From Eledone cirrhosa (lineage: Eukaryota), in contig OZ024741.1 in the NCBI GenBank assembly GCA_964016885.1, positions 224,874,001 to 224,938,000 on the forward strand: 64,000 nucleotides of DNA, read 5' to 3'. Both the position numbers and the translations under genes were made by a program. The notes beneath the pieces are model-generated. The model saw only the letters and a program-made list of their open reading frames with translations, was not told the origin of the DNA and searched no databases. Below are positions 7,907 through 62,679 of the stretch, piece after piece (positions within the stretch are counted from its first letter, which is position 1; each line of letters starts with the position of its first letter).

Positions 7907-8204
7907 ACCCCCGTATATATATATATATATACAACGTATATATATATATATACCCCGTATATATATATGGAAGTGTAGGACGTGAGGTCTGTTTGTCGGC
8001 TCCTCCCCAACACTCTCTCTCTATAGGTCTATCTGACAAACATTTTTTCTATCTCTCTCTCTCCTCATCTCTCCCTCGTACTCTCTCTCTCTCACCCACT
8101 CACTCTCTTTTTCTCACTCTTATATTTATCAATACTACTTCACTAGCCAGCCAGTCACTAATGGGCTACATTAATTAACACCTGCCTGTTGTTTATTGGC
8201 CTGA

Positions 8205-17192: not shown

Positions 17193-17414
17193 GCAGACGT
17201 GTGTAACTTCGCAGAGAAGTTTCCGTTGTTTTGTGTGAGAGAAAAACGTGAGTTTTCAGTTAAATTTTATATTATTGTATAACTTGACCCCCCGTCTGGA
17301 CCTTCAGGTGGTGGGTCAACTCATTTTCGCCCCTACAGGGGCGAAATATTCGTTTTAAAAATTTTTTTCTCCATCGAATTTTGGAAAAAATATATTAAGA
17401 AGTTTGATTACGTT

Positions 17415-19279
17415 ATGAACGCTGCGTTCAACGATAATGGTGGTGGAGAGTCGGTAAGACTACAAAGCTCGCAGTCAACATCGTCTTCTTCCCTAGATAC
17501 TATGGAGATGGAAAGACGAAATGAAAATGTAAAAACAAATTCATATCCAAACAACACAAATGACACCAAACAGTTCAATGACAACAAAAATAACAACACC
17601 AATAATGATGATAAAAACAACAATGACAACAACAACAAAGAAAAAAATAAAGACAACACCAATAACACCAGCATCAAAGACAACAACACCAACACCAACA
17701 CCAAGGAAAATACGAATAATATCAACATCAGTGACAACAAGAATAACAACAACAATAACAACAATAATGACAACACCACCAACACGGATAATTCCACAAA
17801 GAAACCAAAAATCTCCTTTGCACAGACCGTTCAAAAAAAGGAGGAACTGACATATCTCGACATAATGTCGAACAACTTTTAAAGGACGCTAGGAGATATG
17901 TCACTTTCGAAAAAAATGGTGCTTTCAGCATCAATTCTCCGGTAGAAATTCGCAAGGAAACTGCTCTCAAAACGATAGTTTTTAGGACAGTTTCCAATTC
18001 TACCCGAAAACCACTCCAATTGTTACAGAAAGAAATTGAACTGGTTTTCACAAATTCAATGAATGATATTGCATTCATTCAAAGAAGCAAACTTTTTGGG
18101 AGTATTTCGGTACTCATGAAGGATCAATTGACGGCCCAAAATTACTCTGTGTCGCCAATTGTATCCAACCTGTATACCGTTTTCCCTACATACATAGGAA
18201 AAAGGACACAGAAGATTAAAATCACGAGTGTCACACCAAAGGTGAACATATGATGGATACTGTGCGGCTTCATCAATTTTGATGAAGACAGAATACTGTC
18301 AGTAGGAAAGTCCCCCAGAGATGTATTCAATGGGACTAGCATTGAAGTTCTGGTGCAAATGAGCCCAGAGCGAATAGCTATGATCCCACAACGTGTACTC
18401 CTGGACGGACTCACCTACATAAACTTTTCGGTTGAGGGTAGGCGGCTTTCATGTTACCATTGCTTTAGCAGGGGTCACCCGAGGGCTTCCTGTCCTAAAT
18501 TAATGAGTAAAAAAAAGGCTCTTCTGCCGACACCCATCAAAACAACACAACCACCAACACCACCACAACAACAAAAACACCAACACACAAAAATAAGCAC
18601 AACAAACACAGTCGCACCCAACCCCACTCCACCTAAAACCACTGCAAAATCACATACAGACACAACAGATCCCCAAGACATACCCCTCCCCAATCACACA
18701 GACGATACAACAGATGAGGCTATCTCGCCACCACCCAGTGAACACGAGGTAGAACCCCATCGCTCAAAAAGAAAGAAAAGACATCACAAAAGCAAAAAAC
18801 CAGCAAACACTACCACAAACATACAACCACCAACACAAACAACAAAAACATCACAAACAAAACCCCCACCTCCTGAAAACAAAATACCTACAACAAAACG
18901 AAAGCACACACAAGAACTACAGACAAAAACAAACACAACACAAGAAAATTACACTTACACTTACATAAACACTGAAAACTTTCGCCCACTCTATTAAAAA
19001 TAACAAAAAACTGAACCTAAAACTGATTAGGGTCCCTATACAAACTTATAGGTCCCTAAAAGAAACATTTGAGAAGGATGTGGGGAATTCCTGCGTGAAA
19101 CCACTTAACCGCGTCCTTCTCAAATGTCTCACCACCCAAACACCCCCATCCCACCAGACCCCACCCCACCAAACATCTCCGTCCCCACCCCGCCGGAAAC
19201 CACCACCCATCCAGACAACCCCTCCAACACCCCCATGGAAATCGTGCAGCCTGGTTCCCAGGAGACGAAGGGTGAGTGA
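17415..19279 (+). pseudogene. Element A ORF1 (gag-like, zinc knuckle), disrupted
   Basis: Fragments 17415-17882, 18020-18253 and 18353-18997 are similar to B ORF1; CYHCFSRGHPRASC knuckle. Confidence 0.8.
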
Positions 19280-19312
19280 TCTTTTTTCCTCTTTTAACTT
19301 TTCAGCACCAAC

Positions 19313-22300
19313 ATGGCCAATATAAGAGTTGGATGTGTGAACGTACGCGGCCTGGGGATGCCCTGGAAACAGGGCAAACTCTTAAACGACCTCAGGTCAC
19401 ACAGTATGGAAGTGGTAGCCATTTGCGAGTCCAGGATCCACAGCGAGCGACAGCTGACCCCCATCTTCGATGACTTTGAGATCTACGCATCTCTCTGTCA
19501 ACCGGGGGGTGGGGCGGAGTTGCCGTTTTGCTGCGGAAACACCTGGGCCTCGTAACACAGACGGTACATCTGGACCCGGAGGGTCGACTGGTGGTCCTAG
19601 ACGTTGACGGTAGTGAAGGTGGAGCCTTCAGGTTGGTGGCCGCATATGCCCCATCCGGGACACGGCGGCCAGACTTCTTCAAACGTCTAGAGACTTTTCT
19701 GGGAACGTCCCGCTCCTTGCTTTTAGTGGGGGACTGGAATGGAATCCTAGATGCACGTAGGGACTATGTGGGAGCGTGTCCCGATGAAGGGGGGTGTAAC
19801 AGCCTCAAACAGTTAATCGAGCGATTTGACCTGGCCGATAGATATCGACTAGATTTTCCGTCTGCGCCACTGTGGACGTGGAGTAATCGCAGTGGAACAT
19901 CTAGATCGTACCTAGATAGGGTTCTAGTTAGAAATAAGGATAGGGACATGTTAAGCTGTCCACAAATGTTCATGGTTGCCTATTCAGATCACAAACTAGT
20001 GACCTGCATGGCCAACCTTGATAGAACCCATAGACAAGGACCCGGCTACTGGAAGCTGAACTTGTCGTTACCGACAAGCAAAGCCTACAGTAGACGGATT
20101 AGCACTTTAGTTAAACAGCACTTGACAGGGGCCATTGTCAACAACAGATGGTGGTACTCTCTCAAGAGGGCAGTTAGATTAGACTCGTTAGTTTTTAGTA
20201 AAGAATTAGCGTTAGATAGAAATAGAACCGAGAAGGAACTGGTAGATAAAGTAGAAGAGGCAATTAGAAGTGGCAACGTAGCCAGCGTGCTAGCAACGAG
20301 AACGGCCTTGGACCAGTCCTTCGACGCAAAGCACGAGGGCTGCGTTGTCAGAAGCAAAATACGTGCTCTGGGAAACGAGGGAGCCAAAGCTGTTAGCTGG
20401 GCCCGAGTGACGGAGGCAAAAAGTGGCAACAAGTTCACGATTCGGTCTTTGAAGGACCAAAACGGACGCGTGATACGTGAGCCGAAGCAGATGTGTGCGG
20501 CCTTTCAGCGGCACTTTGCTCAGCTGTCCGGGCGGGGCAGCGCGCCGGGAGGGGCTATGGATTTCGGTCCATACCTCGACGGCCTACCGCGACTCTCGGA
20601 CAGCGAGGCAAAGTTCTGCGAAAAGCCGATTTCAGCCGCTGAGATAGGGGACGCGCTGAGCCAATGCGGCAAACGCAAATTTCCAGGTCTCGACGGTCTA
20701 CCCTACGAATTTTACGTAGCAATGCCTGACTTATTCTCCGGTCTCCAGGAAGCGGTCTACTGCAACTGGCAACAGAACGGGAGAATTCCCAGTTCTGTAA
20801 CCGGGGGCGTAGTCACACTAATCAGGAAGGACGAGAATAAAGGGGATGACATAGGCAACTTCCGGTCCATAACTCTGCTAAACACAGAGTTACAGATTTT
20901 AGCCAAGGTGTTGGCAAAGAGGCTGGCGCTTGTCGTCGAGAACATGGTGGGAGAAGCGCAGACATGCGCAATCCCGACCAGGTCTATACACGACAACCTC
21001 CACCTCATGCGATACATCATAGAGAGGGTAGGGTGTAAACCCGGCTTCGGTGGGGCCCTGATCAACTTGGATCAGTCTAAGGCTTTCGATAGGGTTGACC
21101 ATCGTTACCTGGATTCGGTGCTCGAGGCGGCAGGCTTCGGACCCGTGTTCAGGGGCTGGATTGCTGCAATGCACAACAGCAACATCTGCTCAAGCGTCAA
21201 GGTGAACGGCTACCTATCGGAGCCGTTCCATATTACGCGATCCATTCGACAGGGATGCCCTCTCTCCTCCCTTCTGTACGTACTGACTCTCGAGCCACTA
21301 CTGCGGAAGTTGGAGCTATTGCAGAGCATCCCTCTGGAACTGGGACTGCGGAAAGCGGCGCCGGCCTACGCCGACGACGTCACAATAGTGGTGTCGAGCG
21401 CCTCGCAAATCGAGGAAGTCGGCACCTTACTGAAGGAATACGAAAGTTTCACAGGAGCGAAGCTGAACCGGGACAAGTCCATCGGTTTGCAACTCGGATC
21501 GTGGAGGGCCAAACCGATGCCTTCCGATGGCGTCGTCGGACGCTGGACCGAAGGACCGGTAAAGCTGCTCGGGGTCTGGTTTGGTCCGGACCTCCAGGTG
21601 GAGAAGAACTGGAACGAAGTGACGGCCAAGGTGTTTGCACTCACCCAGAAGTGGGCCGAGTGCAAACTATCCTTGAAAGGTCGAGCGGAGGTGGCGAACA
21701 CTTTTATAGCGTCCGCCATCTACTACCGCTTGACCGTCGTGCCTTGTCCAGCCAAAACGCTCGCCAAAATGGAGCGCGCGCTCTTCCAATTCATTTGGAA
21801 GAGGCGAGCTCCTTTGGTGAGAAGATCCATCTGCTGCCAACACCCTTCTAACGGAGGGCTGGGGATGCCGTGGTTGACGATGCGCAAACACGCGCTCAGG
21901 CTGCGGCATCTCTACGTATTCCTCACCGGACAACCGGTGTGGGCCCCGTTCGTGAGGCGAGCCTTCCCACGACTCGTCTCGCTGACCGAGCTGCAGTCCT
22001 GGGTCAAGCAAAGACCGAGGAAAATGGTCGACTGGCACATCGAATGTGCTCAGGCGCTCACAGCCCTCTGGCAGGCGGACCCGGCGATCAGTGGAGACTC
22101 CACTTCGTCATTCTATAGAGGGTTGATCCGCAGCAAGTGCGACGACGCGCTCGGCGAAACTCTAGGCGTAGAGGAAGATGAACTGGCCAGTCTGTTCGGT
22201 AGGACCTTCCGCCCGGGACCGATGGACAACTTCCAAAAGTCCCTGGCCTGGCAGTGCTACCGAGGAGCTCTACCAGTTCGAGACAAGCTCTACAGACATG

Positions 22301-22749
22301 GGCGCCTGGGCAGGGACCCTGCAAAAAAGATCTGTCCAAGGTGCGTGCGTAACGAAGAAACCGTCGCGCACGCATTCATACACTGCCCGGGCGTCACTGA
22401 TCTGTGGGGCTATGTAGAACGACTATTGTCGCGGGTGGGACCAATCCGGTTGACCACCGAGTCCATTGTCATGATCAAACCGCCACCCTCCTTCAAAAAC
22501 GAAGGAGAGGTGGTTTTCCTTTGTGTCATAGCTATGGCGAAAGAGGTTGTATGGTGGACAAGGTTGAAAGGGCTGAGGTCAGACACCTTTCTCTCCGGCC
22601 AACAACTGGTTCTTTTTTTCAAATACCACTTTGGAAGATGAATCAGGATGGAGAGAGAGGTGCTGCACCCCAGCAAGTTTTATGAAAGGTGGGTGAAAGT
22701 GGCGAGAATGGCCCGAGTGAATGGGCCTTCTCTCTATATCAGCCTGTAG
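19313..22749 (+). pseudogene. Element A ORF2 (APE endonuclease, reverse transcriptase, Zn domain)
   Basis: NVRGL, GDWN, SDH, LDQSKAFDRVDH, QGCPLS, YADD, CPRC..H..HC; frameshift near 19510 and premature TGA at 22639. Confidence 0.92.
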
Positions 22750-23199
22750 GTTGAGGAAAAGGAGGAGGAGAGGAAAGGAGTACAAACTCTTCGTACTCCT
22801 GCACATTTTTTTCGGGGATATGTGTTACCCATATGAACTGTCTCCCCCTATTGGGGAAAATCGACTAACTTTTTAAATTGCATTTGTGATAACATTTTAC
22901 ACGTTTTTATTGTATGTAAACTTCCCCCTTTGTATTTGTCCCATTCTTTTGTGCCCCTGTGGCTAATAAAGAAACATATCTATCTATCTATCTATCTTGA
23001 TAGAGTAAGACACGCTTCGCATCGGCTCCGCTATTCCATCGGGATTTACCCTTACTATTGTAAGTACCGGATAAATTTTTTAGTGCAACACATTTGGAAC
23101 ACTAACCCCTGTTATTTAGGGAAACATTTTTGCATTTACCCCCTTTTTAGGGGGTAAAATAAATATCTATTTTTGCCGAAAAATTTCTTTCTTGGCAGC

Positions 23200-25037
23200 A
23201 TGGCGGAAAAGATGGCAGACATGTCTGCCATTAGCTCTGCCACGCCCCCCAAGTCTGAAGAACAAAAAATAATTACAACAAAATTAGACATTGAAACAAA
23301 CAAAGAAAATGAAAAAACAAATGTTAAGGAAAATGAGCAAACAGAAAACAAACAAACAGAAAATAATACAAATAACGACAGGGCAACTTTCGCCCAGAAA
23401 ACAAAACAATCCATTACATACACACCAATTGACCTAACTGCCGCCAGAGAAAAACTGGCCGAAGCAAAGAAACACATTGTTTTGGGGGAGAACGGAATGT
23501 TTTCCATTAACTCCCCCCCAGAATTCAAGAAAGCCAGAGCAGAAAACACAGTTCTCTACAGAACTATACTGAACCAGACAAGAAAGCCAGCACAGCCCAG
23601 CCAAATGGAAATAGAGTTAGTCCTAAAAGACTATATGAAGAATATTCTCTTCATACGAAAGGACCGACTCTATGGCAGCATTTCGGTCCTAACAAGAGAC
23701 AAAGAAACGGCGGAGAAGCTTTCCCTAAGCCCACTCTCATCGACAACATATAGCTTCTATCCCTCCTACATGGGTAGAAGAACACAGAGAGTAAAAGTAA
23801 AAACAATGCTGCCCACAATGGACTTCTGGTGGGCTATTGCTGGCTTCATTGATATGGGCGAAGACACAATGCTGTCAATGGGGAAGGCAACTGGAGATGC
23901 GTTCCTGGGAATGGGCCTCGACATACTAGTCCAAATGAGGCCCGAAAGAATAGCACAAATCCCGGATCGCATCTGGCTGGATGACCTTACCCCAATAGAC
24001 ATAATTGTAGAGGGGAGAAGACCAGCATGCTATTTATGCATGGAAAGGGGACACGTTAAGGCTAACTGCCCGAAACGTATCCCTCAAAAAGGACTATTGC
24101 CCACACCCACCACAAACAGTACACCAACACCACCCACCTCCAAAAATACACTAATACCACACACAGCAAACAAAATACAGACACCACCAACCACAAACAC
24201 AACACAAACATCACCACCACCAGCACCAAACACAAGCACGACACAAAAATCACCACCACCAACCACAACACAAACATCACCACCACCATCACCAACCACA
24301 AGCACGACACAAACATTACCACCACCACCACAAAACCCATTCCAAACAAATAATAAAAAAAACAGTAACAAATCTACCCCTCCCGCAAAAAAAAAAACAA
24401 CCACACAACACGTCCCTCCCACCTAGCGCTGAAGAGTTTCCCCCAACTTCTGAAGAAGAAGGAGGAGAAGCCTTCAGACAAGTTAAAAGAAAAAAAAGAA
24501 AACACACACCCAGCACACCACAAATAACCCACACACAAACACCAACTCCAATCAAAAACACCCCACCCTCAACAAACAAAAATAAATCTGCGCCTCCCCT
24601 CTCCGAAACATTGACAGCATCACAAAAAAAGACGTTGCAATACACATATATAAATAAAGAAAACAAAAAACTGGTTAAATTAATAAACAATAACCCTATG
24701 GTGCAGACCGAAGGGCCAAACTTTATCTCAACAGAGAACTTCACCCATTTAAAAATGATAAAGGTCCCTCTGGACCTTTATCGTTCCTTAAAAGAACAAT
24801 TTAGACGGGACGTGAGCCCCCCCCCCCTGTTTAAAACCGTTGAATCGCGTCCTCTTGAAAGATTTCCCCATAACCGCCCCTCTCCCTGACACAACTCCAA
24901 ATACCCCAACCCCACCACACACGTGTACCCCCACACCACCACAAAACATCCCTCCACCCAACACACCTGATGCCATGGAAATTACGCAACCCGGAGAGGT
25001 AAGTGCTTTTCTTTCTTCACTTTCAACACCAAAATAG
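23200..25037 (+). CDS. Element B ORF1 (zinc knuckle, Pro/Thr-rich), with two apparent frameshifts
   Basis: ATG at 23200, CYLCMERGHVKANC; homology continues in frames 24611-24889 and 24840-25037 (NRVLLK..MEITQP). Confidence 0.75.
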
Positions 25038-28000
25038 ATCAATTGAGAGTTGGCTGTTTGAACGCGCGTGGCCTGGGCTCAGCTTGGAAGCAAGCAAAGC
25101 TTCTAAGTGACCTCAGGTCACAAAGTATAGATGTGATGGTTGTTTGCGAGAGTCGGATGAGCAGTGTGAGACAGCTGGCGCCCGCCTTCGATGACTTTGA
25201 GATGCACGCATCTCTCTGTCAACCCGGAGGCGGGGGGGGGGGAGTTGCCGTACTGCTGGATAAACGTCTGACTCTCGACGTACAGATTGTTCACTCGGAC
25301 CCGGGGGGTCGATTACTGGTGCTGGACGTCGGAGGCGGTGAAGGCGGGGCTTTCAGACTGGTCGGTCTTTATGCTCCCTTCGGGGCGGAAAGAGCCGACT
25401 TCTTCCAGCGTCTGGAGACTTTTCTAGGAACGTCGCGTACCCTGCTTTTAGTGGGGGACTGGAATGAAATCCTAGATGCGCGTTGGGACTATGCAGGGGC
25501 ATGTCCCGATAGAGGGGGGTGTAGCAGCCTCAAGGGGTTACTCGATCGATTCGACCTGGTCGATAGATTTCGACTAGATTGTCCAACTGCGCCAACCTGG
25601 ACCTGGGCAAACCGCAGTGGACAATCTAGATCGTACCTAGATAGGTTTTTGGTTAGGAGTAAGGATAGGGACGTATTTAGTTGTCTAGAACTGATCATGG
25701 TTGGCTATTCAGATCACAAATTAGTGACCTGCGTGGTCAACATTGATAGAACGCATAGACAGGGTCCCGGTTACTGGAAGATGAACTTGTCCTTACCGAC
25801 AAAGAAAGATTACAGAAACCGGATTAGTAGCTTAGTTAAGATGCGGTTGACGGGAGCGATCGTCAACAGTAGGTGGTGGGTATCTCTAAAGAGAGAGATT
25901 AGAGTAAGTTCGATAGGTTACAGTAAGGAACTAGCGGCGAATAGAAATAGGAAGGAAAGGGAGTTAACAGATAAACTAGAAGAGGCGATTAGGAGCGGAG
26001 ACGTAGCCAGAGTGTTAGCGACGAGAACGGCATTGAGCCAGTTCTTTGACGCGAAGCACGAAGGCTGCGTTGTCCGAAGTAAAATACGTGCTTTAGGAAA
26101 CGAGGGGACCAAAGCTGTTAGCTGGGCCCGCGTGACAGAAGCCAAGAGTGGGATTAAATCCACCATTCGGTCTTTGCGAGACCAGGATGGACGGGTGATC
26201 CTTGAACCTGAGCGAATGTTCGAGACCTTTCAAAGGCACTTTGCTCGACTGTTCGGAGGTGGCGGGGGGCCGGACGGGGATGTGGACTTCGGTCCATACC
26301 TCGACGGTCTACCGCGTCTTTCGAGCGGCGAAGCGGAGTGCTGCGAAAGGCCAATCACAGCCACTGAAATCGGGGAAGCGCTCAGCCAATGCAGCAGACG
26401 CAAATCCCCGGGTCTCGATGGTCTACCATACGAACTTTATTTAGCTATGCCGGTCTTGTTCTCCGAACTCCTCGAGGCTGTCTATTGCAACTGGCAACAG
26501 AACGGGAGAATTCCCTGTTCTGTGACCAAGGGCGTGGTCACGCTAGTGAGGAAGGACGAGAGCAAGGGGGACGACTTAAGTAACTTTAGGCCCATAACTC
26601 TGCTGAATGCAGAGTTACAGATTTTGGCCAAGGTGTTGGCGAAGAGGTTGGCGCTTGTGGTGGGTGGTTTGGTGGGAGACGCGCAGACATGCGCTATCCC
26701 GTCCAGGTCCATTCACGACAACCTCCACCTCATGCGATACATCATAGAGAGGGTTGGCTACGAACCCGGCTTTGGTGGGGCCCTGATCAACTTGGATCAA
26801 TCTAAGGCGTTCGATAGGGTCGACCATGGTTACCTGGATGCGGTGCTAGCGGCGGCGGGCTTCGGACCCGTTTTCAGGGGCTGGATTTCTGCCATGCACA
26901 GTGGCAACATCTACTCTAGGATTAAAGTAAACGGCTACCTCTCGGAGCCGTTTCAAATCACCCGATCCATCAGACAGGGGTGCCCCCTCTCCTCCCTTCT
27001 GTACGTATTGACTCTCGAGCCACTGCTGCGGAAGTTGGAGTTGCTGCGGGGCATACCCCTGGAACCGGGATTGCACAAAGCGGTCTCGGCCTATGCCGAC
27101 GACGTAACAGTAATGGTGGCGGACGCCTCGGAAATCGGGGCGATCGCCACCCTACTGGAGGAATACGAAAGGCTGACGGGGGCTAAGCTGAACCAGGACA
27201 AGTCAGTCGGTTTGCAACTCGGAACGTGGAGGGGCAAACCGATGCCGTTAGACGGTGTCGTCGGGCGGTGGACGGAGGGCCCGGTGAAGCTGCTCGGGGT
27301 CTGGTTCGGACCGGACCTCCAGGTGGAGAAGAATTGGGGCGAGGTGACGAGCAGGGTGTTTGCGCTGACCCAGAAGTGGGCCAAGTGCAAACTATCACTG
27401 AAAGGTCGGGCGGAGGTGACGAACGCTTACATAGCGTCCGTCATCTACTACCGCCTGACCGTCGTGCCTTGCCCCAAGGAAAAGCTCACCATCATGGAAC
27501 GCATGCTCTTCCAGTTCCTCTGGAAGAAGCGGCCTCCCATGGTGAGGAGATCCATCTGCTGCCAGCACCCTTCGAAAGGAGGGCTGGGTATGCCGTGGCT
27601 GTTGATGCGTAGGCACGCATTGAGGCTACGGCATCTACAGGTATTCCTCAACGGTCAGCCGGTGTGGGCCCCGTTTGTGAGGCGAGCCTTCCCACAGCTC
27701 GTCTCGCTCACCGAACTGCAATCCTGGGTGAAGCAAAGACCGAGAAAACTGGGCAACTGGCACACCGAGTGTGCCCAGGCGCTCACGGCTATCTGGCAAG
27801 CGGACCCGACTGTCAGTGGAGAATCCACCTCGACATTCTATAGAGGGTTGGTGGCTAGCAGGGGCGATGACACCCTTGGAGAGTCGCTAGGCATGGAGGA
27901 GGACGAACTGGCCAGCCTGTTCGGTAGAACTTTCGGCCCGGGACCCATGGACAACTTCCAGAGGTCCCTAGCCTGGCAGTGTTACCGGGGGGCTCTGCCC

Positions 28001-28474
28001 GTTCGAGAAAAGCTCTACAGACACGGGCGCCCGGGCAGGGATCCCGCGAAAAAGATCTGTCCCAGATGCGTGCGCGACGAGGAAACCGTTGCGCATGCAC
28101 TGGTACACTGCCCGGGCGTTGCCGATCTGTGGGGCTACGTCGAACGACTGCTGTCGCGTGTGGCGCCGATTCGATTAACCGCCGAGTCTGTGGTGAACAT
28201 CAAGCCGCCTCCTCCCTTCAGAAATGAAGCAGAGGCGGTCTTTCTGTGCGTAATAGCCATGATGAAAGAGGTTGTGTGGTGGACGCGCCTGAAAGGTCTG
28301 AGGTCGGGTGACTTTCTCTCCGGCCATCACCTGGTTTACTTCTTCCGATACCACTTCGGAAGAAGGATCAGGATAGAGAGAGAAGTGCTTGGTCCCAGAC
28401 AGTTTTATGAAAGGTGGGTGAAAGAAGCGAGAATGGCCCGTGTAAATGGGCCTTCTCTCTACATTGTTCTGTAG
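25034..28474 (+). CDS. Element B ORF2, uninterrupted APE-RT-Zn polyprotein (~1145 aa)
   Basis: 1143 open codons from 25043 with all endonuclease and RT motifs (YADD); the position matching the A and C start codon reads ATA at 25034. Confidence 0.93.
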   Translation: MDQLRVGCLNARGLGSAWKQAKLLSDLRSQSIDVMVVCESRMSSVRQLAPAFDDFEMHASLCQPGGGGGGVAVLLDKRLTLDVQIVHSDPGGRLLVLDVGGGEGGAFRLVGLYAPFGAERADFFQRLETFLGTSRTLLLVGDWNEILDARWDYAGACPDRGGCSSLKGLLDRFDLVDRFRLDCPTAPTWTWANRSGQSRSYLDRFLVRSKDRDVFSCLELIMVGYSDHKLVTCVVNIDRTHRQGPGYWKMNLSLPTKKDYRNRISSLVKMRLTGAIVNSRWWVSLKREIRVSSIGYSKELAANRNRKERELTDKLEEAIRSGDVARVLATRTALSQFFDAKHEGCVVRSKIRALGNEGTKAVSWARVTEAKSGIKSTIRSLRDQDGRVILEPERMFETFQRHFARLFGGGGGPDGDVDFGPYLDGLPRLSSGEAECCERPITATEIGEALSQCSRRKSPGLDGLPYELYLAMPVLFSELLEAVYCNWQQNGRIPCSVTKGVVTLVRKDESKGDDLSNFRPITLLNAELQILAKVLAKRLALVVGGLVGDAQTCAIPSRSIHDNLHLMRYIIERVGYEPGFGGALINLDQSKAFDRVDHGYLDAVLAAAGFGPVFRGWISAMHSGNIYSRIKVNGYLSEPFQITRSIRQGCPLSSLLYVLTLEPLLRKLELLRGIPLEPGLHKAVSAYADDVTVMVADASEIGAIATLLEEYERLTGAKLNQDKSVGLQLGTWRGKPMPLDGVVGRWTEGPVKLLGVWFGPDLQVEKNWGEVTSRVFALTQKWAKCKLSLKGRAEVTNAYIASVIYYRLTVVPCPKEKLTIMERMLFQFLWKKRPPMVRRSICCQHPSKGGLGMPWLLMRRHALRLRHLQVFLNGQPVWAPFVRRAFPQLVSLTELQSWVKQRPRKLGNWHTECAQALTAIWQADPTVSGESTSTFYRGLVASRGDDTLGESLGMEEDELASLFGRTFGPGPMDNFQRSLAWQCYRGALPVREKLYRHGRPGRDPAKKICPRCVRDEETVAHALVHCPGVADLWGYVERLLSRVAPIRLTAESVVNIKPPPPFRNEAEAVFLCVIAMMKEVVWWTRLKGLRSGDFLSGHHLVYFFRYHFGRRIRIEREVLGPRQFYERWVKEARMARVNGPSLYIVL

Positions 28475-28705
28475 GTGAAGAAGTGAAGAGGAAAGGGGGA
28501 GCGCCTCCTCTCTGGGCTTCCCCCGCGAAAAGAGTTGCACACTTTTCGGGGGTATGTGCAATCCCCAACACGCCCCCTCCTTTTTGAGGACTTTTTATTG
28601 TTATATTATTATTGTTATTCCTTTTTTCTTTACTCGATTTATGTAAACTCCCCCACTGTGTAAATGTCCCCTTCTTTTGTGCCCTCGTGGCAAATAAATA
28701 GAAAT

Positions 28706-28742
<37 letters not shown>

Positions 28743-28918
28743 GGACGTGCGGTAGATCGCTGGTAAGTTTTTGTAAAATTTTCCATACAAAAACAGAATT
28801 CATTGTGTAAAATTTTATATTGTTTGTCAGCTGGGTGGTAATCTCAGTTTTCGCCCGACAGGGGCAGAAATTTAATTAAAAATATTGACAAGTTTTAAAT
28901 ATTTTCCTAACTTTAATA

Positions 28919-30738
28919 ATGTGTGACTTACAACGAAAGCTAGACTGCGAGAAGAGAGGGAAAGAGACAGATATAAGCGTTATATCTCCCTCTATTTCCA
29001 TAGAAGTATCTATGGAGACAAACAACAACAAAACTTCATTTCGTAAACAAATGGATATTTACACAACAAAAGATGAAAATAACAGCCCACAACAGACACA
29101 AAAAAAATACAGAAAATGCAGAAATTGAAACAATTGACACAACTACACACGACAAAACCGACAACAACAACAACAAAATTGAAAAAACAACATTCGCACA
29201 GACTGTGATAAATAAAACAGAGTACAAACACATCGACATAAGCAACTCCAAACAAATGTTGACCGATGCAAAACAATTCATAACCTTTGAATAAAAGGGT
29301 GGGTTTTATATAAACTCACCCTTGCAAATTAAACGAGAAACAGTTCGGAGGACAGTAACCTTCAGAACTGTTTCAAATCAAACGAAAAAAACCGGTATTC
29401 CTCAGTCAAGGAGAAATTGAAACAACCCTGGAAGAGGCTCTGCCGGACATTGATTTTATGCAGAGGGCCAGACTATATGGAAGTGTGTCAGTACTTTTTA
29501 AAAGCGAGGCCCTCGCACAAAAACATTCTGTTACACCAGTCATCACAAAAACACACACCTTTTTCCTTACTTACATGGGAAAAAGAACTAAAAAAATTAA
29601 AATAAATAATATACCACCAAACATCAACATTTGGTGGATCTTGGCCGGTTTTATAGAGTCAGAAAGTGATACAATTTTTTCGGTCAGGAAATCGACCAGA
29701 AAAAGGTGGGCAGGGACAAATTTGGAAATTCTGATACAAATGACACCAGAAAGAATTTCCAAAATCCCCGAAAGAGTGCTGGTCGACAACCAGAACTACA
29801 TCAACATTGTCACTGGGGGGAGAAAGCCACACTGTTTTCGATGTGCAAGCATATCACACCTAAAAGCCTCCTTCCATTTACAAACAATTCTTAAAAAAAA
29901 AAAGTACTTTTACCAACACAACACCAAAACAATCACCACCACCACAACCACCACCACCACCACCACCACAACAACAACAACAGACGAAACGAGCAAACAC
30001 GCCAAAACAAACAGCCACTCAACCAACACCAGAAAAAGCAGAGACAACACCCCTGAAGAACACAGCCCCACCCATCCCACTCCATCAAACACTACCACAA
30101 ACACACACATCGAAACACCACCACCACACAACATACCCCTACCCCACACCCCTGACGATGATTATTCATTGACGGATGAAGCTGCTTCTCCTTCTTTAAG
30201 TGAAGAAGAGGGAGAGCCACGGAAATCTAAAAAACAAAAAAATAGACACCACAAAACCCCCTAAACTCCAATCACCAACACCAACACACAACCACAGACA
30301 CAAACAACACAAACAACACCACAGTCAAACATCCCCCTACCAGGAAAACCAACACCAACACCACCCCAAACACAAGCACCCACCATAAAAAGAAAACTCC
30401 CGGACGAACAACAAACTAAAACAACACTACAAAAACACAAACAACAATACGCATACATCAACACAAACAACAAGAGTTTGATGGAGGTCATCTCCCAAAA
30501 CCCCAAGGTGGAGACGGAGGGCAAAACTTTCGTCAAGGCAGAATCGCCTCCACACCTTAAACTTATAAGGTTTTCTATGGATAATGACCTGAAAAATAAA
30601 TTTTCGCAGGACGTGGGCAACCCCTGCCAGAAACCCATCAACCGCGTCATGTTAAAACGTTTCCCCACCACACCCAACACCCAATCCAGCATCCAAATGG
30701 AGGTTGAACAACCCGATTTCCAGGAAACGAAAAGGTAA
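28919..30738 (+). pseudogene. Element C ORF1, disrupted
   Basis: TFAQTV, LYGSVSVL, YMGKRT, degenerate knuckle CFRCASISHLKAS, NRVMLKRFP. Confidence 0.8.
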
Positions 30739-30779
30739 GTGCACCTTTCGTCCCTTTTCTCCAACTCTTCTTCATCAAC

Positions 30780-33700
30780 ATGGCTAGTTTACGAGTTGGA
30801 AGCGTGAATGTGCGTGGCCTAGGGATGCCCTGGAAACAATGCCAACTTTTAAACGACCTTAGGTCACACGGTATGGATGTGATAGCCATCACCGAGTCCA
30901 GGATCCACAACAGGCAGCAACTAACCCCTATCTTCGACGACTTTGAGATCTACGCATCTCTCTGTCAGCCAGAAGGTGGAGGGGGAGTGGCTGTCATGTT
31001 TCGGAAGTACCTGGACGTCGAAGTACAGCAAGTACACTTGGACCCGGAGGATAGACTGGTAGTCCTAGACGTGAACAATATTGGAGGTGGAGCCTTCAGA
31101 CTGGTGGCCATTTATGCCCCGACCGGGCAATCGCAATCACGGCCAGACTTCTTTAAGCGTCTAGAGTCTTTTCTGGGAACGTCTCGTTCCTTGCTTCTAG
31201 TGGGGGACTGGAATGGTATCCTAGATGCACGATGGGACTATGTGGGAGCATGTCCAAGTAGAGGGGGTGCAACAGCCTCAAAACTTTAATCGGCCAATTC
31301 CAACTGGCCGATAGGTATCGACTGGATTTCCCGACTGCACCACAGTGGACGTGGGCAAACAGCAGCGGGACATCTAGATCGTATTTAGATAGGTTCTTCA
31401 TTAGAGAAAGGGACAAGGAAATGTTAAGCTGTCCACGAATACACATGGTTAACTATTCAGATCACAAATTAGTCGTCTGCTTAGTCAACCGTGATAGAAT
31501 ACATAGACAAGGACCCGGATACTGGAAGCTGAACGTGTCGTTGCCGGCACGTAAAGTTTACAGTGAACGAATAAGTAGACTAGTCAAGCAACAGTTAACG
31601 GGAGCCATCGTCAACAATAGATGGTGGTACTCTCTCAAGAAAGCAATTAGAGTAGAATCGATAGGGTTTAGCAGAGAGTTAGCTTTAAAGAAACACAAAA
31701 TAGAAAGAGAACTAGTAGCCAAGGTAGAGGAGGCACTTAGAAGTGGCAACGCGGCTAGAGTGTTAGCGTCGAGAACGGCACTGGACCAGTTCTTCGATGC
31801 GAAACACGAAGGCTGCGTGGTCAGAAACAAAACACGTGCTCTAGGAAATGAAGGAGCGAAAGCTGTCAGCTGGGCCCGAGTGGCGGAGGCGAAAAGCGGC
31901 AACAAGTCCACGATTCGGTCTTTGAAAGACCAAAACAGACGCCAAATGTGTGCGGCCTTTCAGCAGCACTTTGCGCGACTGTTTGAGCAGAACGACGGTG
32001 AGCCGAACTGGGGAATGAACTTTAGTTCATACTTCGACGGCCTGGCGCGTCTCTCGAACACGGACGCTCTGGGCCGCTGCGGGAAACGCAAGTCACCCGG
32101 TCTAGATGGTCTACTCTATGAGTTTTACATAGGCATGCCGGACTTGTTCTCTGGTGTCCTCAAAGCCGTCTACTGCAATTGGCACCAGAACGGGAGAATT
32201 CCCAGTTCTGCAGGCAAGGGCGTAGTAACGCTGATCAGGAAAGACGAAACAAGGGGGACGAAATTAACAACTTCAGGCCCATAATTCTGCTCAACACAGA
32301 GTTAAAGATTTTGGCCAAGGTGCTAGCGACGAGGTTGGCGCTTGTCGTCGAGAACCTGGTAGGAAAAGCGCAAACGTGTGCAATCCCGACCAGGTCCATA
32401 CACGACAACCTCCACCTCATGCGATACATCATAGAGAGGGTGGCTAGTAAACCCGGCTTCGGTGGGGCTCTGATCAATTTGGATCAGTCTAAGGCATTCG
32501 ATAGGGTCGACCATCGATACTTGGTCCCATCGATACGGTTTCGGTCCCGTTTTCAGAGGCTGGATCGACGCGATGCACACCAGCATCTGCTCGAGAGTCA
32601 ACGTGAACGGCTACCTATCGGAGCCGTTCGCAATCACGCGTTCCATTCGACAGGGGTGCCCTCTCTCCTCCATTCTGTATGTATTGACTCTAGAGCCACT
32701 ACTGCGGAAATTGGAGCAGTTGCTGGGCATCCCTCTAGAACCGGGACTGCACAAAGCGGCGTCGGCTTATGCCGATGACATGACGGTAATGGTGTCGAGC
32801 ACCTCGGAAATCGGGGTGATCGGCAACTTACTGAAAGAATACGAAACGCTGACGGGAGCAAAACTGAACCCAGACAAGTCTGGTTTGCAATTTGGTACGT
32901 GGAGAGGAAAACCGATGACGTCCGACAGCGTCGCTGGATGCTGGACGGACGGACCGGTGAAATTGCTCGGGGTCTGGTGCGGTCCAGACCTCCAGGTGGA
33001 GAAAAACTGGAACGAGGTCACGGCCAAGGTGTTTGCGCTCACCCAGAAGTGGGCAGAGTGCAAACTGTCCTTGAAAGGTCGAGCGGAGGTGGCGAACACT
33101 TTCATAGCGTCCATCATCTACTACCGCTTGACTGTCGTGCCTTGCCCCCGTGAACACCTCGGCAAGATGGAGCGCATGCTCTTCCAGTTTCTGTGGAAGA
33201 AGCAGGCTCCGCTGGTGAGGAGATCCGTCTGCTGTCAGCACCCTTCCAACGGAGGGCTGGGAATGCCGTGGCTGATGATGCGCAAACATGCGCTGAGGCT
33301 GTGGCATCTCCAGGTATTCCTCACCGACCCCCAACCAGTGTGGGCACCGTTTGTGAGACAGGCTTTCCCACAGCTCGTCTGGCTGACGGAGCTGCAGTCC
33401 TGGGTCAAGAAAAGACTGAAAACGATGGGCACCTCGCACATTGAATGCGCTCAGGCGCTCACAGTCCTCTGGCAAGCGGGCACAGCAATCAGTGGAGACT
33501 CCACTTCGACATTCTATAGAGGGATTGTACGTTACAAGGGCGACGACGTGCTCGGAGAGACTCTGGGCGTCGAAGACGATGAGCTCGCCAGTCTGTTTGG
33601 TAGGACTTTCCGCCCGGGACCTATGGAAAACTTCCTGAGGTCCCTGGCCTGGCAGTGCTACCGAGGAGCTCTACCGGTTCGTGACAAGATCTACAGGCAC

Positions 33701-34116
33701 GGACACCCCGGCAGGGATCCTTCCAAGAGGACGTGTTCAAGATGCGCGCAGGGCATTGAAACAGTCCTGCACGCAATTGTACACTGCCCGGGAGTAACTG
33801 ACCTGTTACGCTATGGAGAACAACTGCTGTCGCGTATGGAACAAATCCAGTTGACTGCCGAGTCCTTAGTAAGGATCAAACCGCCAGCCTCTTTCAAAAA
33901 CGAAAGAGAAGCGGTTTTCCTCTGTACGGTGGCTATGGTGAACGAGATTGAGGGGACTGAGGACAGATGCCTTTCTCTCCCTTCTTTAAGTATCATTTTA
34001 GACGGAGAATCAGAGTAGAGAGAGAGGCACTGCACCCCAGTAAATTTACTGAAAGGTGGGTGAATGAAGAGGAAATGGCCCGAGTGATTGGGCCTTCTCT
34101 GTTTATAAGCCTGTAG
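30780..34116 (+). pseudogene. Element C ORF2, frameshifted
   Basis: Fragments 30780-31289, 31421-32284, 32179-32778 and 32573-34018 are collinear with A and B ORF2. Confidence 0.9.
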
Positions 34117-34372
34117 GTTGAAGAAGAGAGCAAAAGGAAGAAAGGAGAACTTACACAACACGCTCCTGGAGGTGAGGGTTGTTCTATCGACGGGGTATTA
34201 AACAACCCATTTGTGGCGCTTCCCCCCTATTGGGGATTTCGATTGTTGTAATTGTTTGTTTTTATTTTTTTTATACGACTGTATGTAAAATCCTCGGCAT
34301 GACTTTGTATTGTCCCCTTTTTTTGTGCGCCCTTGTGGCAAATAAAGAAATCTATCTATCTATCTATGTATG

Positions 34373-34417
<45 letters not shown>

Positions 34418-34489
34418 GTCTATGCCGACGGCCATGTTGTCCACCTGTCTTTACACGTGCTCACCAAAGCTTTCAATCTATCACCAACG

Positions 34490-53685: not shown

Positions 53686-54272
53686 TGGTGGATTGGCAGT
53701 ATCAGTAGAGGGTCGGCCGCCTTGTTTTGCAGCATAGAGTTACGGCCCTTTACAGTTAACTTTGCCTTTCATCCTTACGAGCTCGATAAAATAAAATACC
53801 AGTTATGCAGTGAGATAATTGCTGGCCTTGTGCCAAAAGTAGACACAATTATTATTGGTAGATTGGCAGTATCGGTAGAGCGTCAGACACCATGCTTTGA
53901 CGCACAGAGTTACGCCCCCTTTACAGTTCAAATCCCACCGAGGTTAACTTTGCCTTTCATCCTTACGGGGTCGATAAAATAAAGTACCAGTCACGCACTG
54001 GGGTCGATTTAATCGACTTTCCTCTCCCCCATAAGTGTTGGCCTTGTGCCTATAGCAGAAATCATTATTATTTTAATGTGGCGGTGGATTGGCAGTATCG
54101 GTAGAGGGCCGGACGCCATGCTTCTGACGTATAGAGTTACGGCCCTTGCCATCCTGAGTTCAAATCCCGCAGAGGTTAAGTTTGCCTTTCATCCTTACGA
54201 GGTCGATAAAATAAAGTACCAGTAATGTACTGGGTAATTGCTGGCCTTGTGCCAATAGTAGAAACAATTATT
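53686..54272 (+). mobile_element. Three head-to-tail abundant-SINE copies
   Basis: Copies start near 53687, 53857 and 54080. Confidence 0.85.
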
Positions 54273-55533: not shown

Positions 55534-58500
55534 AAAAATCGAGCAAACAATATGAATAACAATAACAAAGTAACAAGAAAAATACAAGAAAAATTCCCAA
55601 TAGGGGGGGATGACCACCCAGGGTTCGCTCAGGTACCCCACCAATCCTGAATGACCCGACGCTTCGAGAGCACCCTGGAAGGGCACCCCTCTCCTCCTCA
55701 AATTTACCCACCTACAGTGTATGACCAGAGTAGGCCGACTCACACGGGCCATTCTCGCCACATTCACCCACCTTTCAACAGATGTACGGGGGGAGGGGGG
55801 GGGGCACTTCTCTCTCCACCCTCATCTTCCTTTCCAAGTGAAACTTGAAGAAGTTGATGAGGGATTGGCCGAAGAGAAAAGTGTCTGTCTTCAGTCCTTT
55901 TAACCTCATCTACCATACAACCTCTTTCGCTACTGCCACCAGACAGGAAAATTGCCAGCCCTTCCTGGCCAAAAGAAGGCGGCGGGTCGATCTTCACTAT
56001 GGACTCGGATCTATTCTACACGCGACAACAGCTGTTCGACATAACTCCACAAGTCAGTAATGCACGGACACTGGACGCGTGCGTGCAGAACGGTTTCGTC
56101 GCTCTGCGCGCGTCTCGGGCAGGTCCGCGCCTGTAGAGTTTATCTCGAACCGGCAGTGCCCCTCGGTAGCACTGCCAAGCGAAGGATTTTTGGAAATTAT
56201 CCATCGTCTCCGGCTCGAAAGTCCTCCGGAACAGACTGGTTAGTTCGACTTCGTCAACTCCCAGAGCCTCTCCGAGTGCGTCGTCGCACTTTCGCACCAC
56301 TAATCCTCTATAGAACTCGAGAGTGGAAGTTCCACTGACCGCATTGCCCGCCTGGTAGAGGGCAGTGAGTGCCTGGAAACATTCCAGATGCCAGTCACCC
56401 AGTCTCGGTCTCTTCAGGACTGCAGTTCAGTCAAAGAGACGAGCTGCGGAAAGGCCCGTCTGATAAACGGCGACCACACCTGTTCACCGTTTAGGCAGAA
56501 TATCTGGAGATGCCGCAGCCTCAGCGCGTGTCTGCGCATCATTAGCCACGGCATGCCCAGCCCTCCACGTAGAGGGTGCTGGCAGCAGATGGACCTCCTC
56601 ACCAATGGAACCTAACCCCTCCACAAGAATTTGAAGAGGAGCCGCTCCAAGATGGCGAGGCGCGAACGGGGGCAAGAGACAACGGTCAGACGGTAGTAGA
56701 TGACGGACGCGATGTACGCCTTCGCTACCTCCGCCCGAACTTTTAGGGATAGCTTTCTCGCAGCCCATTTCTGGGTGAGACTGGCTACCCTTCCCGTCAC
56801 CTCGTCCCAATTCTTATCCACCTGGAGGTCTGGCCCGAACCAAACCCCGAGCAACTTTACTGGTCCGTCCGTCCAGCGCCTAACGACGCTGTTTCACGGC
56901 ATGGACTTGCCTCTCCAGGTGCCGAGTTGCAAGTCCGCCGACCTTTCCGGGTTAAGTTTTGCTCCCGTCAACCTTTCATATTCCTCCAATAAGTTGCCGA
57001 CCACCTCGATTTCTGAGGTGTCCGACACCATCACGGTGATGTCGTCCGCATAAGCCGACACAGCCTTTCCGCGTCCCGGTTCGAGGGGGATGCCCTGCAA
57101 CAGCTCCAACTTCCGCAGTAAAGGCTCGAGAGTCAATACGTACAGAAAGGAGGAGAGAGGGCACCCTTCAAGGACCGATCGCGTGACCTGAAACGTTTCC
57201 GAGAGGTGGCCATTAATTTTGACCACCGAGCAGGTGCCGCTGTGTATTGCAGCGATCCAGCTTCTGAAGACGGGGCCGAAGCCAGCCGCCTTAAGGACAG
57301 CCTCCAGGTACCGATAGTCGAACCTATCGGATGCTTTCGATTGATCTAAATTGATCAGAGCCTCACCGAAGCCAGGTTTACACCTTACCCTCTCTAAGAT
57401 ATATCGCATCAGGTGGAGGTTGTCGTGTATGGACCTGGTTGGGATTGCGCAAGTTTGCGCCTCCCCACCCAAATTCCCGACGACAAGCGCCAACCTCTTC
57501 GCTAACATCTTAAACTCTGTGTTGAGCAGGGTTATGGGCCTGAAATTGTCTAATGTGTCCCTCTTGTTCTCGTCTTTCCTTATCAGCGTCACTACGCCCC
57601 GGCTCACAGAACTGGGAATGCTCCCGTTCTGCTGCCAGCTGCAGTAGAGCGCTTCGAAGAGATTGGAGAACAAGTCTGACATATTTACGTAAAGCTCGTA
57701 GGGTGACTTGCGCCTCATGCAGCCGACAAGGGCATCCTGAATCTCGGCTGAAGTAATCAGCCTTTCGCAGCGCCCAGCGTCGGCCGTCGAGAGTTGCGGC
57801 AAGCCATCGACTGAAGTCCGCCACCGTCTCTGACCCGCCACTTCCCCCGAACAATCGAGCAAAATGTTGGCGAAAGGCCTCACACATCCTCTTGGAATCG
57901 CTCAGCTCGTGTCCATCTCGGTCCGTCAAAGACCGAACTGTGGTTTTATTACCACGCTGCGCTTCTGCCACGCGGGCCCATCGAACAGCTTTTGTTCCCT
58001 CGTTTCTCAGAGCACGCACCTTAGCTCTGACAATGCAATCTTCGTGTTTCGCATTGAAGAAATGGTCTAATGCCATTCTCGCCGCTAGCACGTTAGTTGC
58101 AATGCCACTACAAATAGCCTCGTCTAACTTATCTACCAACGTCCCCTATTTCTATTTTTCTCTAACGCTACTTCTTTGCTAAACTCTCTCGTCATTACCC
58201 TAATCTCTCTTTTGAGAGCCCCATACCATATATTGTTGACGACTCCCCCTGTCAACCTTTTCTTAACTAAGTTGTTGACCTGGTCCATATAAGCCTTACG
58301 TGCCGGAAATGACATGTTCAGCTTCCAGTAACCAGGTCCTAACCTACCCATCTTATCTAGGTCGACCATACAGATCACAAACTTGTGATCTGAATAGGCG
58401 ACCGTTTTAAAACGCGGTCAGCTTACACTATTTCTGTCTATTTTCCTAATGAATATCCTGTCTATATACGATCTAGATGACCCTATGCGGTTAGCCCAGG

Positions 58501-60580
58501 TCCACACTGGCGCATTAGGGAAATCTAGTCGGTACCTGTCAGACAGTTGGAACTGGCTGATCAGGTTCTTGAGGCTTTTGCACCCCCCGCTCCTATCGGA
58601 TACTCCCACACAGTCCCAGCGTGCGTCTAAGATGCCGTTCCAGTCCCTCGCTAACAGTAAAGGGCGAGACGTACCCAGAAATGCATCCATGCGTCTAAAG
58701 AAGTCCGGCCGTCTTGCCCCAGTAGGGGCGAAGACGGCCACCAGTCTAAAGGCACCACCTTCGTTATTGTTCACGTCCAGGACCACCAATTTCCGGTCCG
58801 GGTCCCAGAAGATCGACTTTACCTCGAGATCCAGGCCTTTCCTAAACAGCACTGCCACCCCGCCTCCCATTCCCGGCCGACTAACAGATGCAAAGATCTG
58901 AAAATGGGGTATAGTGCGCGCGTGTCGGAAATCCTGGTCTCGCTGACGGCAATTACATCCATTTCTAGAGACCTGAGGTCATTGAGCAGGTGACTCTGCT
59001 TCTAGGACGATCCCAGACCTCGAACATTTAAACTTCCTACTCTTAATACGGCCATGCTGGCAGGTTAAAAGAGAGAGAGAGGAAAGGTTTACTTACCTTC
59101 CGGGCGCTTGTGAAGGTCGGGTGATTCGACCTCCATAGTTGGTGGGGTTTCTTTTGGGAACCCCTTTAAAAGTCTTGAAGTGGATTTTACGTTCGGGGTT
59201 CCCACGTCCCGAGGAAAGCTGTCTCGTATCTCTTTGTATAAATCGAGCGACATTCGCACCAGAAACAAATCTTCCGGCACGCGAAATGTGCTCGATTTAA
59301 AAATGTCCTCTTCTTTTTGAATATCTTCACTTCGTGCTACGAGCGCCATCAGTTCCTTGTTGGCCCTCCTGACGAGCACAAAGTTTTGTATGTTTTGTTG
59401 GTGTGATTTTATTTGTTTGCGTGGCTGTGGTGGTGATGGTTTTGATGGTGTTGTTTCGGTTGTGTCTGTGGTTTCAGATGTTTGTGTGTATTTGTTCTTG
59501 CGTCTGTTTAGGTTGTTTGCGTTTGTGGGATTCTGGAGATGGTGATGGTGGTGTTGATGTTGGTGTTATTGGGGAGATGTTTGCGTGGGTGGTGTCTGCA
59601 CTTTTTATAGTGGGTGATTTTGTGCTTTGTTGAGCTTTTTTTTCTTTTCGTGTTTCCTTTTTTTGTATTTTGGGGGATTTTCGTTTCCCCTCATCTTCAC
59701 TACTGGTAGATGAGGGGTCTGTGTCTGTAAGTGTGTCTGTGTGTGTGTTTATGTTTTTATTGGTGTGTGTATTTTGAGGGGGAGGGGGAATTTGACAACT
59801 TTCCTCTCTGGGTGGTCAATGTTGGTGGTGGTCTTTCTATTGGTGTTGTTGCTGGTGGTTTTGCTGGTGCTGGTGCTGCTTGTGGTCCTCGCCCCGGCGT
59901 CGGCAGCAGTAGAGCCCTTCGACCCCTTGCATCTTTCAGCAGTTGAGGGCAGAAGATCCGCAAATGGGCTTTTTCCCTACAAACAAAACACTGCGGCCTT
60001 TTGCCGTCGGTCATAATGTGAATGACCGTCCCATTCTGAAGGCGGATGTGGTCCGGGATTGTCTTCATATTCTCGGGCCTGATCTGGAGAAGTATCTCCG
60101 GTCAACTCCGGACCAGTCCTCTCTGGTAGTTCTTGTTACTTATATCGGGAGGTATCCGTCCCCTCCACAATCACACATCCCAGAAGCCACCACATGTCAA
60201 GTCCTGGTGGGATTCTTGGAATGCGGAGACGAGCCGTTCTTTTTCCCATGTGGGAGGGGTACATTATGACCTTGCTGGTTTTGCAAGGAGTCATAGCGTG
60301 TGTCATAGCGAGGGCTTCTGACTTAAACAGCACCGAAATGGTGCCGTACTGTCTGCCCCTCGCTATGTATTCGGTGTCATCTCTGATGCACCTCAGCACG
60401 ACGTCAACATCTGCTTGTGGAATTAAAGCTGCCCTTTTGGTTTGTGCTGAGATGCATCTATAATGCACGGTTCTGCGCTCCACTGCCTCAATAGCTTCTA
60501 TCAGGACAGTTAAGTTGGCCCAGGTTTGCTCTTGCTTGATGAGCTTCCATCCATGACTAAGTTGTTGCAAGTAAACTCTT
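55455..60580 (-). mobile_element. Tx1/L1-clade element D, 5'-truncated and decayed
   Basis: ORF2 fragments 59055 to 55712 (LDQSKA, GCPLS, YADD, SDH); ORF1 fragments 60570 to 59089 (CFVCREKAHLRIFC); 3' end gtggccaataaatgaaatcattatt. Confidence 0.9.
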
Positions 60581-62325: not shown

Positions 62326-62679
62326 TGTGAGTGTGTGTGCACGATTATATATCTGTAAGTAGCGTTCCCTCTTACCGTTACTGTTTACACTCCCGCCCCG
62401 ATAAACACTTTTCTCTTTCTCTCATTTTACTTCTTCCACCAAACTCGTAACACACGTATGTACAAAATACTACACTCTACTACTGGATTGGCAGTATCGG
62501 TAGAGGGTCAGATACCATGCTTTGATGCATAGAGTTACGGCCCTTTCAATTCTCAGTTCAAATCCCACCGAGGTTAACTTTGCCTTTCATCCTTACGGGG
62601 TCGATAAAATCAAGATATCAATATATTATTAGATATAGGGATGTATATATATATAGATAATATTAGGTATTATTGTTTG

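Follow-up and report, generated by a model that had tools for sequence, protein, structure and literature searches.

What is a strong 5′ splice site doing at the end of the first open reading frame (ORF1) of an intron-less long interspersed nuclear element (LINE)? The question is raised by a 64,000-nucleotide stretch of the Eledone cirrhosa genome (assembly GCA_964016885.1, contig OZ024741.1, positions 224,874,001 to 224,938,000, forward strand; hereafter the window). Here, four LINEs of the Tx1/L1 group, referred to as A, B, C and D, carry a donor motif at the junction between ORF1 and ORF2. The original prediction took this motif, the pyrimidine tract behind it and a nearby AG for a conserved donor-acceptor cassette, and offered a spliced ORF2 mRNA or U1 binding as its use. 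The donor is conserved and real; its reading as half of a donor-acceptor cassette is wrong. Judged from their sequences, what these LINEs carry is best described as an orphan donor within a predicted long-range helix around ORF2.

A conserved donor at the end of ORF1

All four junction motifs were re-located where they had been placed. G|GTRAGT lies at the end of ORF1 in A (19272..19277, plus strand), B (24999, plus), C (30735, plus) and D (59096, minus), each followed by a pyrimidine tract, and these four junctions make up 4 of the 11 GGTRAGT matches on both strands of the window, which is above chance. Their coding context differs. In A the donor is in phase 1, with the ORF1 stop TGA at 19277-19279 and the ORF2 ATG at 19313; D is likewise in phase 1 (ORF1 stop 59091-59089, ORF2 ATG 59055). 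In C, phase 2, the ORF1 stop TAA falls within the donor and the ORF2 ATG is at 30780. In B the donor is read in phase 0, and ORF1 continues through it to a TAG at 25035-25037 that overlaps an ATA at 25034.

Conservation was then followed through the subfamilies of this genome, labelled A to M and represented by 19 single copies (the loci L322, which has no ORF2 start, and L330, L331 and L333, which have no 3′ end, are not among them). G|GTRRGT stands at the end of ORF1 in 18 of the 19 representatives. Moreover, among 30 copies selected by their ORF2 N-terminal codons alone, 27 have GTRRGT at this position and the other three are one base off. Scored with a generic donor matrix, the junction donor outranks every other sense GT (~260–300 per copy) in 16 of the 17 full-length copies, and it comes first or second in the additional copies ranked. 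Across 34 columns anchored on the donor, only positions −1, +1, +2, +5 and +6 are invariant, with +3 and +4 restricted to purines (18 representatives, M left out); the neutral baseline for comparison is 39 invariant positions among 177 fourfold sites of ORF2 (12 representatives). The motif is kept in all three reading phases, namely 2 (most subfamilies), 1 (A and D) and 0 (B), and an intact 611-codon ORF1 reading through the donor in phase 0 was present in 3 of 20 subfamily B copies. Donor and ORF1 stop overlap in most subfamilies, a feature absent from the original prediction: AGG is followed by TAA, TAG or TGA and then GT, all three stops being used. Eighty distant loci from metagenomes (mostly 22–33% identity), judged by eye, had no donor at a constant position ahead of ORF2, and their stop codons were mixed. 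Therefore, the junction donor looks lineage-specific.

A second donor-like hexamer occurs 20–125 nt from the 5′ end in all 11 aligned 5′ untranslated regions (UTRs; 37–76% identity), at two different offsets, and is followed by U-rich sequence and hairpins. It lies at 17248..17253 in A (plus strand, with the U-rich sequence after it), at 23060..23065 in B (plus) and at 28763 in C (plus). This site is weaker than the junction donor (rank 2–27), and shuffling gives it a probability of 0.05–0.38 for each UTR alone. Every 5′ UTR examined also has, before the ORF1 ATG, a GC-rich hairpin between T and A runs, often preceded by a second hairpin. The GC-rich hairpin is found at about 17325-17350 (A), 23135-23160 (B) and 28848-28872 (C), and also in L177, L185 and L193; its letters differ in D and H. 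A search of seven loci against Rfam, these hairpins included, returned nothing at gathering score.

The acceptor side is another matter. An AG between the donor and the ORF2 start is present in just four of the 19 representatives (A, A3, D1 and D2), so donor and acceptor do not form a conserved unit. The AGs described for A and D do exist, ending at 19305 and 59057 after gaps of 34 and 40 nt, and removing these gaps leaves ORF1 and ORF2 out of frame, as had been claimed. The CAG of A (19303..19305, plus) falls within the predicted helix described below and is not kept across subfamilies. Of the signals of a GT-AG intron between the ORFs, the donor was found; a conserved branch point and an AG at a workable distance were not. 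In-frame fusion of the two ORFs, by splicing or by stop read-through, was ruled out by spacer lengths that give mixed frames. An acceptor before the ORF1 ATG was also rejected, the apparent tract there being coding and the true ATG lying upstream.

This bears directly on the proposal that the tract and AG accept an upstream donor, for example that of the 5′ UTR, and so yield an ORF2-only mRNA. There is precedent in the human SpORF2 transcript (PMC2896524), the AG of family A scores well (5.6), and a 5′ UTR donor exists to feed it. However, 15 of the 19 representatives lack the AG, subfamily B offers no ATG, no family A copy is joined at that AG, and tract and 3′ UTR covary. Acceptor-side searches in family A returned 2 and 5 matches, all local deletions or duplications, and both of those bearing on this proposal are local deletions. 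We regard a spliced ORF2 mRNA of this kind as highly improbable.

Pairing between the junction and the 3′ UTR

A helix of 24–49 bp is predicted between two arms that lie 3.4 kb apart, on either side of ORF2. Its 5′ arm takes in the final ~20 nt of ORF1 together with donor and spacer, its 3′ arm the initial ~60 nt past the ORF2 stop. In A, the predicted 5′ arm (ORF1 end, donor and spacer) occupies 19259..19306 and the 3′ arm 22749..22801 (both plus), directly past the ORF2 stop TAG at 22747-22749. The corresponding predicted arms, the donor being included in each 5′ arm, are 24990..25030 and 28474..28516 in B (plus; ORF2 stop 28472-28474), 30720..30776 and 34116..34170 in C (plus; stop 34114-34116), and 59059..59108 and 55669..55712 in D (minus; stop 55714-55712). 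The 3′ arm of C contains a stretch complementary to the donor itself.

The complementarity is family-specific. With the spacer set against the first 45 nt past the ORF2 stop, own-family combinations outscored swapped ones (p 2e-5, 13 representatives; 130 of 362880 permutations for nine representatives), and own spacers beat shuffled ones with z of −1.5 to −3.6. For the extended arm, the own-family mean was −51.2 kcal/mol compared with −41.0 kcal/mol for swapped pairs (19 representatives; z −7.5; 0 of 100000 permutations), and the exon-plus-donor portion alone gave z −6.1. Four control pairings were null (p 0.21–0.87). Pair swaps were negative in 7 of 7 cases, two of the pairs sharing a branch. 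Moreover, within the whole element the 3′ arm is the best 70-nt partner of the extended 5′ arm in 19 of 19 representatives, and it is the best partner of the spacer alone in just 6 of 13. The helix also fits subfamilies K and M, which were fetched after the idea had formed and have different letters. Sense pairing is stronger than antisense in 17 of 19, and G-U accounts for 99 of 758 pairs. Within the donor, pairing involves +1 in 18 of 19 representatives, −1, +5 and +6 in 16, +2 in nine, and +3 and +4 in six. The ORF2 start codon is unpaired in all 19, and the ORF2 stop sits at the base of the helix. A search for an ADAR footprint in the arms, of low power, found no A>G excess. The helix is not among the five longest DNA-level inverted repeats in five regions, as expected for a bulged helix with G-U pairs. 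We consider it very probable that the helix is real and under selection. The pyrimidine tract and the first part of the 3′ UTR covary, which accounts for the tract without an acceptor role, and it appears better explained as part of the 5′ arm than as an acceptor tract.

Such a helix may have been selected for translation, whether through stop-restart or closed-loop initiation of ORF2, through repression of ORF2, or by presenting the 3′ end to newly made ORF2 protein. The donor letters would then be a stop codon plus paired bases, with no purposeful binding of U1. The pairing statistics are what this would predict, as is the location of the ORF2 start and stop at the helix base; the motif accommodates all three stop codons, one subfamily M copy retains the helix with A at donor +1, and subfamily B lacks an ORF2 ATG and has overlapping stop and start. 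Against this, the other pairs of the helix turn over freely and only five donor positions are fixed, the motif is retained where it is not a stop and is partly unpaired (B and D), and an unrelated donor recurs in the non-coding 5′ UTR. We therefore think a purely translational role rather unlikely.

Subfamily B deserves separate mention. In 20 of 20 copies the ORF2 start reads ATA in place of ATG; this ATA follows an A run, is in the −1 frame and is overlapped by the ORF1 stop TAG (25034-25037). The subfamily is young and abundant (472 5′ ends), with ORF2 fully open in several copies (L266-L285). Non-AUG restart or a −1 shift is possible at this ORF2, as far as the arrangement of its codons suggests.

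Spliced copies and a role for U1

LINE copies are reverse transcripts, and a spliced RNA can thus leave a genomic record. Human L1 has done so, with 116 of 6609 copies (about 1.8%) carrying a spliced 5′ UTR (PMC5860796). In family A we found 234 exact unspliced junction matches. Two sets of six copies that deviate right after the exon end proved to be point changes, small indels and one deletion. That deletion, in copy L093 (L093:1500-1530), begins at the junction donor, stops a single base away from an ORF2 AG (window 19404) and is ambiguous between microhomology and imprecise splicing. Across subfamilies there were 6327 unspliced junctions. Joining of ORF1 to a purine run gave five matches, all point changes at +6, with a pattern that is blind to D- and F-type 3′ UTR starts; joining within 5–97 nt to the 3′ UTR motif common to A, E, F, H, I and J gave none. 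Probes for any acceptor, estimated to see about 40% of joints, returned one 2-nt insertion for F, H and J and nothing for E. At the 5′ UTR donor of subfamily B there were 472 unspliced matches, 60 of 60 copies read were unspliced, and the probe covering both candidate acceptors had no match. This is the most telling of the searches, because a splice there would retain both ORFs. A 5′ UTR intron was accordingly rejected, candidate AGs 60–126 nt past the donor being present in some subfamilies and not all. In four sequencing runs of unknown kind, aligned to 17290-22975, none of the 15 joints listed falls at the donor.

It is conceivable that the junction donor is used in regulated splicing that removes ORF2, giving an ORF1-only mRNA as Ty1/copia does for GAG, with the helix setting the ratio of spliced to unspliced RNA. 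The element's strongest donor coincides exactly with the end of ORF1, and in 16 of 19 representatives a pyrimidine-rich run leads into an ORF2 stop of the form YNTAG|G; there is precedent in PMC5580714, and an RNA without ORF2 may escape copying into the genome. However, the acceptor at or after the ORF2 stop is not conserved. It ranks anywhere from 1 to 33 of ~260, M has a poor context, and subfamily K (62–67% amino-acid identity to B) keeps donor and helix with an ORF2 that ends in TAA and has no AG there. No ORF1-to-3′ UTR copy was found against the 6327 unspliced junctions, using patterns blind to some subfamilies, and the helix would bury the donor as well as the beginning of the second exon. 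We judge this kind of splicing possible but unlikely.

Our preferred reading, held tentatively and at a little less than even chances, is that the family keeps a strong donor at the end of ORF1 and a second near the 5′ end, without a conserved acceptor, that the junction pairs past the ORF2 stop as predicted, and that these features combine with U1 binding and no routine splicing. Taken by itself, a role of the donors in binding U1 without routine splicing is about an even bet. Since no spliced copy was found, the signal at the end of ORF1 likely binds U1, the other use that the original prediction had offered, and this option fits the donor's invariance, its top rank, the second orphan donor in the 5′ UTR and the absence of spliced copies. 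Bound U1 inhibits the use of nearby poly(A) sites and favours nuclear retention. The sequences themselves show the donors and how invariant they are, the lack of a conserved acceptor, complementarity specific to each family, and that no spliced genomic copy turned up; the remainder we infer as follows. During transcription of ORF1 and the 3.4 kb of ORF2, U1 would occupy the still unpaired donors and keep early termination and the use of cryptic poly(A) sites in check. The emerging 3′ UTR would then zip onto the junction, covering donor positions −1, +1, +5 and +6. Such masking would release U1, block splicing, and allow polyadenylation of the full-length unspliced RNA ~200 nt further on, followed by export. 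The helix would also place the unpaired start and stop codons of ORF2 side by side at its base and thereby gate ORF2 translation. Elsewhere, an acceptor-less 5′ splice site blocks Restrictor without splicing (PMC12211998), and U1 at the GAG-end donor of EVD prevents premature termination (PMC5580714). A stronger version is a self-timing switch, in which the donor holds U1 for exactly the time taken to transcribe ORF2, the element's own 3′ UTR being a built-in anti-U1 strand. ORF2 would be looped with its start and stop adjacent, and the switch would license 3′ end formation and unspliced export and control ORF2 initiation, even without an AUG in B. This version we find doubtful.

Several observations weigh against the preferred reading. 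Positions +2 to +4 of the donor are the ORF1 stop in most subfamilies, and −1, +1, +5 and +6 are paired in the helix, so its invariance is partly explained without U1. Positions +2 to +4 are unpaired in 10–13 of 19 representatives. In one subfamily M copy (L319, C10:26847100-26853900) donor +1 is an A that pairs with U, and this copy keeps the helix without a 5′ UTR donor. The 5′ UTR donor is absent in this one M copy read and weak in some subfamily K copies. The permutation test makes no correction for kinship, and minimum-energy folds of the whole RNA (~3.85 kb) form the helix in one of three elements (K), not in the window copies A and B. Poly(A) hexamers are crowded into ORF1, ahead of the junction donor, and are few in ORF2; there is thus little for a protection of ORF2 from cryptic poly(A) sites to act on, and the 5′ UTR donor would be better suited to the hexamers in ORF1. 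Lastly, missing copies do not exclude ORF1-only or ORF2-only mRNAs, since such RNAs might not be retrotransposed. A further 39 subfamily M copies, at 96–97% identity to L319, were found in the genome.

How an intron-less bicistronic LINE RNA avoids early termination and splicing and manages to make a little ORF2 protein from the second cistron is still debated, an internal ribosome entry site (IRES) standing against reinitiation (PMC5381506). In this lineage two short features can be altered independently: a donor of six bases, and a long-range helix of ~40 bp for which many subfamilies supply natural, compensated variants. The question thereby becomes testable by point mutations and arm swaps. 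It may also be of relevance for compact, sequence-specific LINE vectors.

The elements and their relation to known systems

Elements A (17194..22996), B (22997..28742) and C (28743..34423) form a head-to-tail array of full-length two-ORF LINEs on the plus strand, and D (about 55470-60570, minus) is 5′-truncated; their ORF2 identity is 70–79%. A has a poly(A) signal at 22965 and a (TATC)n tail, with both ORFs disrupted in the window copy. The ORFs of C are also disrupted. B has an open ORF2 frame (24971-28474) with no ATG at the ORF2 start. ORF2 matches PF03372 (APE endonuclease), PF00078 (RT) and PF13966 (zf-RVT) in Pfam, and its best solved-structure match is human L1 ORF2p (E 1e-50). ORF1 has no Pfam match and shows a CCHC knuckle in translation. 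The family shows 5′ truncation, with depth increasing toward the 3′ end, and a poly(A) signal and simple tail; (TATC)n-type sequence precedes 60 of 60 subfamily B 5′ ends. By domains and architecture, these are Tx1/L1-group non-LTR (long terminal repeat) retrotransposons, presumably of the Tx1 clade, a name we give on architecture. The group is large, with 6116 exact matches to the ORF2-start pattern in the genome.

Two target types exist within it, D, K and M lying after (ATT)n and the other subfamilies (A, B, C, E-J) after (TATC)n. Subfamilies inserting into one another's (TATC)n tails have produced mixed head-to-tail arrays (window 17194-34423; C1:4232348-4255699; C1:26573002-26590648), in which the new element's 5′ UTR donor falls shortly downstream of the preceding element's poly(A) signal. 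Elsewhere in the window, the 3′ end of D has a 192-nt near-exact duplication about 660 nt downstream (54682-54873 / 55342-55533). A 192-nt unit resembling a short interspersed nuclear element (SINE) is dispersed (e.g. 60640-60830, 53690-54240), with seven tandem copies near the window end (62484-63825). A 56-nt minisatellite of 21 copies occupies 3-1178, and a 12-nt array of 144 copies (8202-9948) yields long open frames.

In the literature covered, which left subscription journals, Repbase reports and supplements outside its scope, we found no description of an ORF1-end donor or a junction helix, nor of long-range pairing with ORF2 translation. The Tx1-group microsatellite-targeting LINEs (Kibi, Koshi and crocodilian Tx1; PMC4494074) and the 'L1-Tx1' of Octopus vulgaris (PMC13282606) share with ours two ORFs, APE, RT and zf-RVT, and microsatellite insertion, here into (TATC)n or (ATT)n. 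Unlike these LINEs, they are described in the passages compared with neither a donor at the end of ORF1 nor pairing between junction and 3′ UTR. Vertebrate L1 inter-ORF spacers likewise place a T-rich spacer before ORF2, where an IRES or reinitiation was proposed (PMC5381506); that study found no local structure common to them, 'splic' is absent from its main text, and the part seen describes no long-range 3′ UTR pairing. Human L1 (SpIREs and SpORF2; PMC5860796, PMC2896524) also has a 5′ UTR donor with mostly unspliced RNA, and occlusion of that donor has been suggested. In contrast to subfamily B (0 of 472), it leaves about 1.8% spliced copies (116/6609; PMC5860796), and the parts of both papers seen describe no donor at its ORF1 stop. 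U1 telescripting and Restrictor/Su(s) (PMC12211998) offer a likeness in the sense-strand donor that protects nascent RNA without an acceptor, as is proposed here. There, protection was demonstrated in mammalian and fly genes and reporters rather than LINEs, and without masking by a later-made RNA arm. Finally, EVD and Ty1-copia (PMC5580714) are LTR elements with a genuine short intron, spliced and coupled to termination, whereas the LINEs of Eledone cirrhosa combine an orphan donor, without conserved acceptor or spliced copy, with a predicted masking helix.

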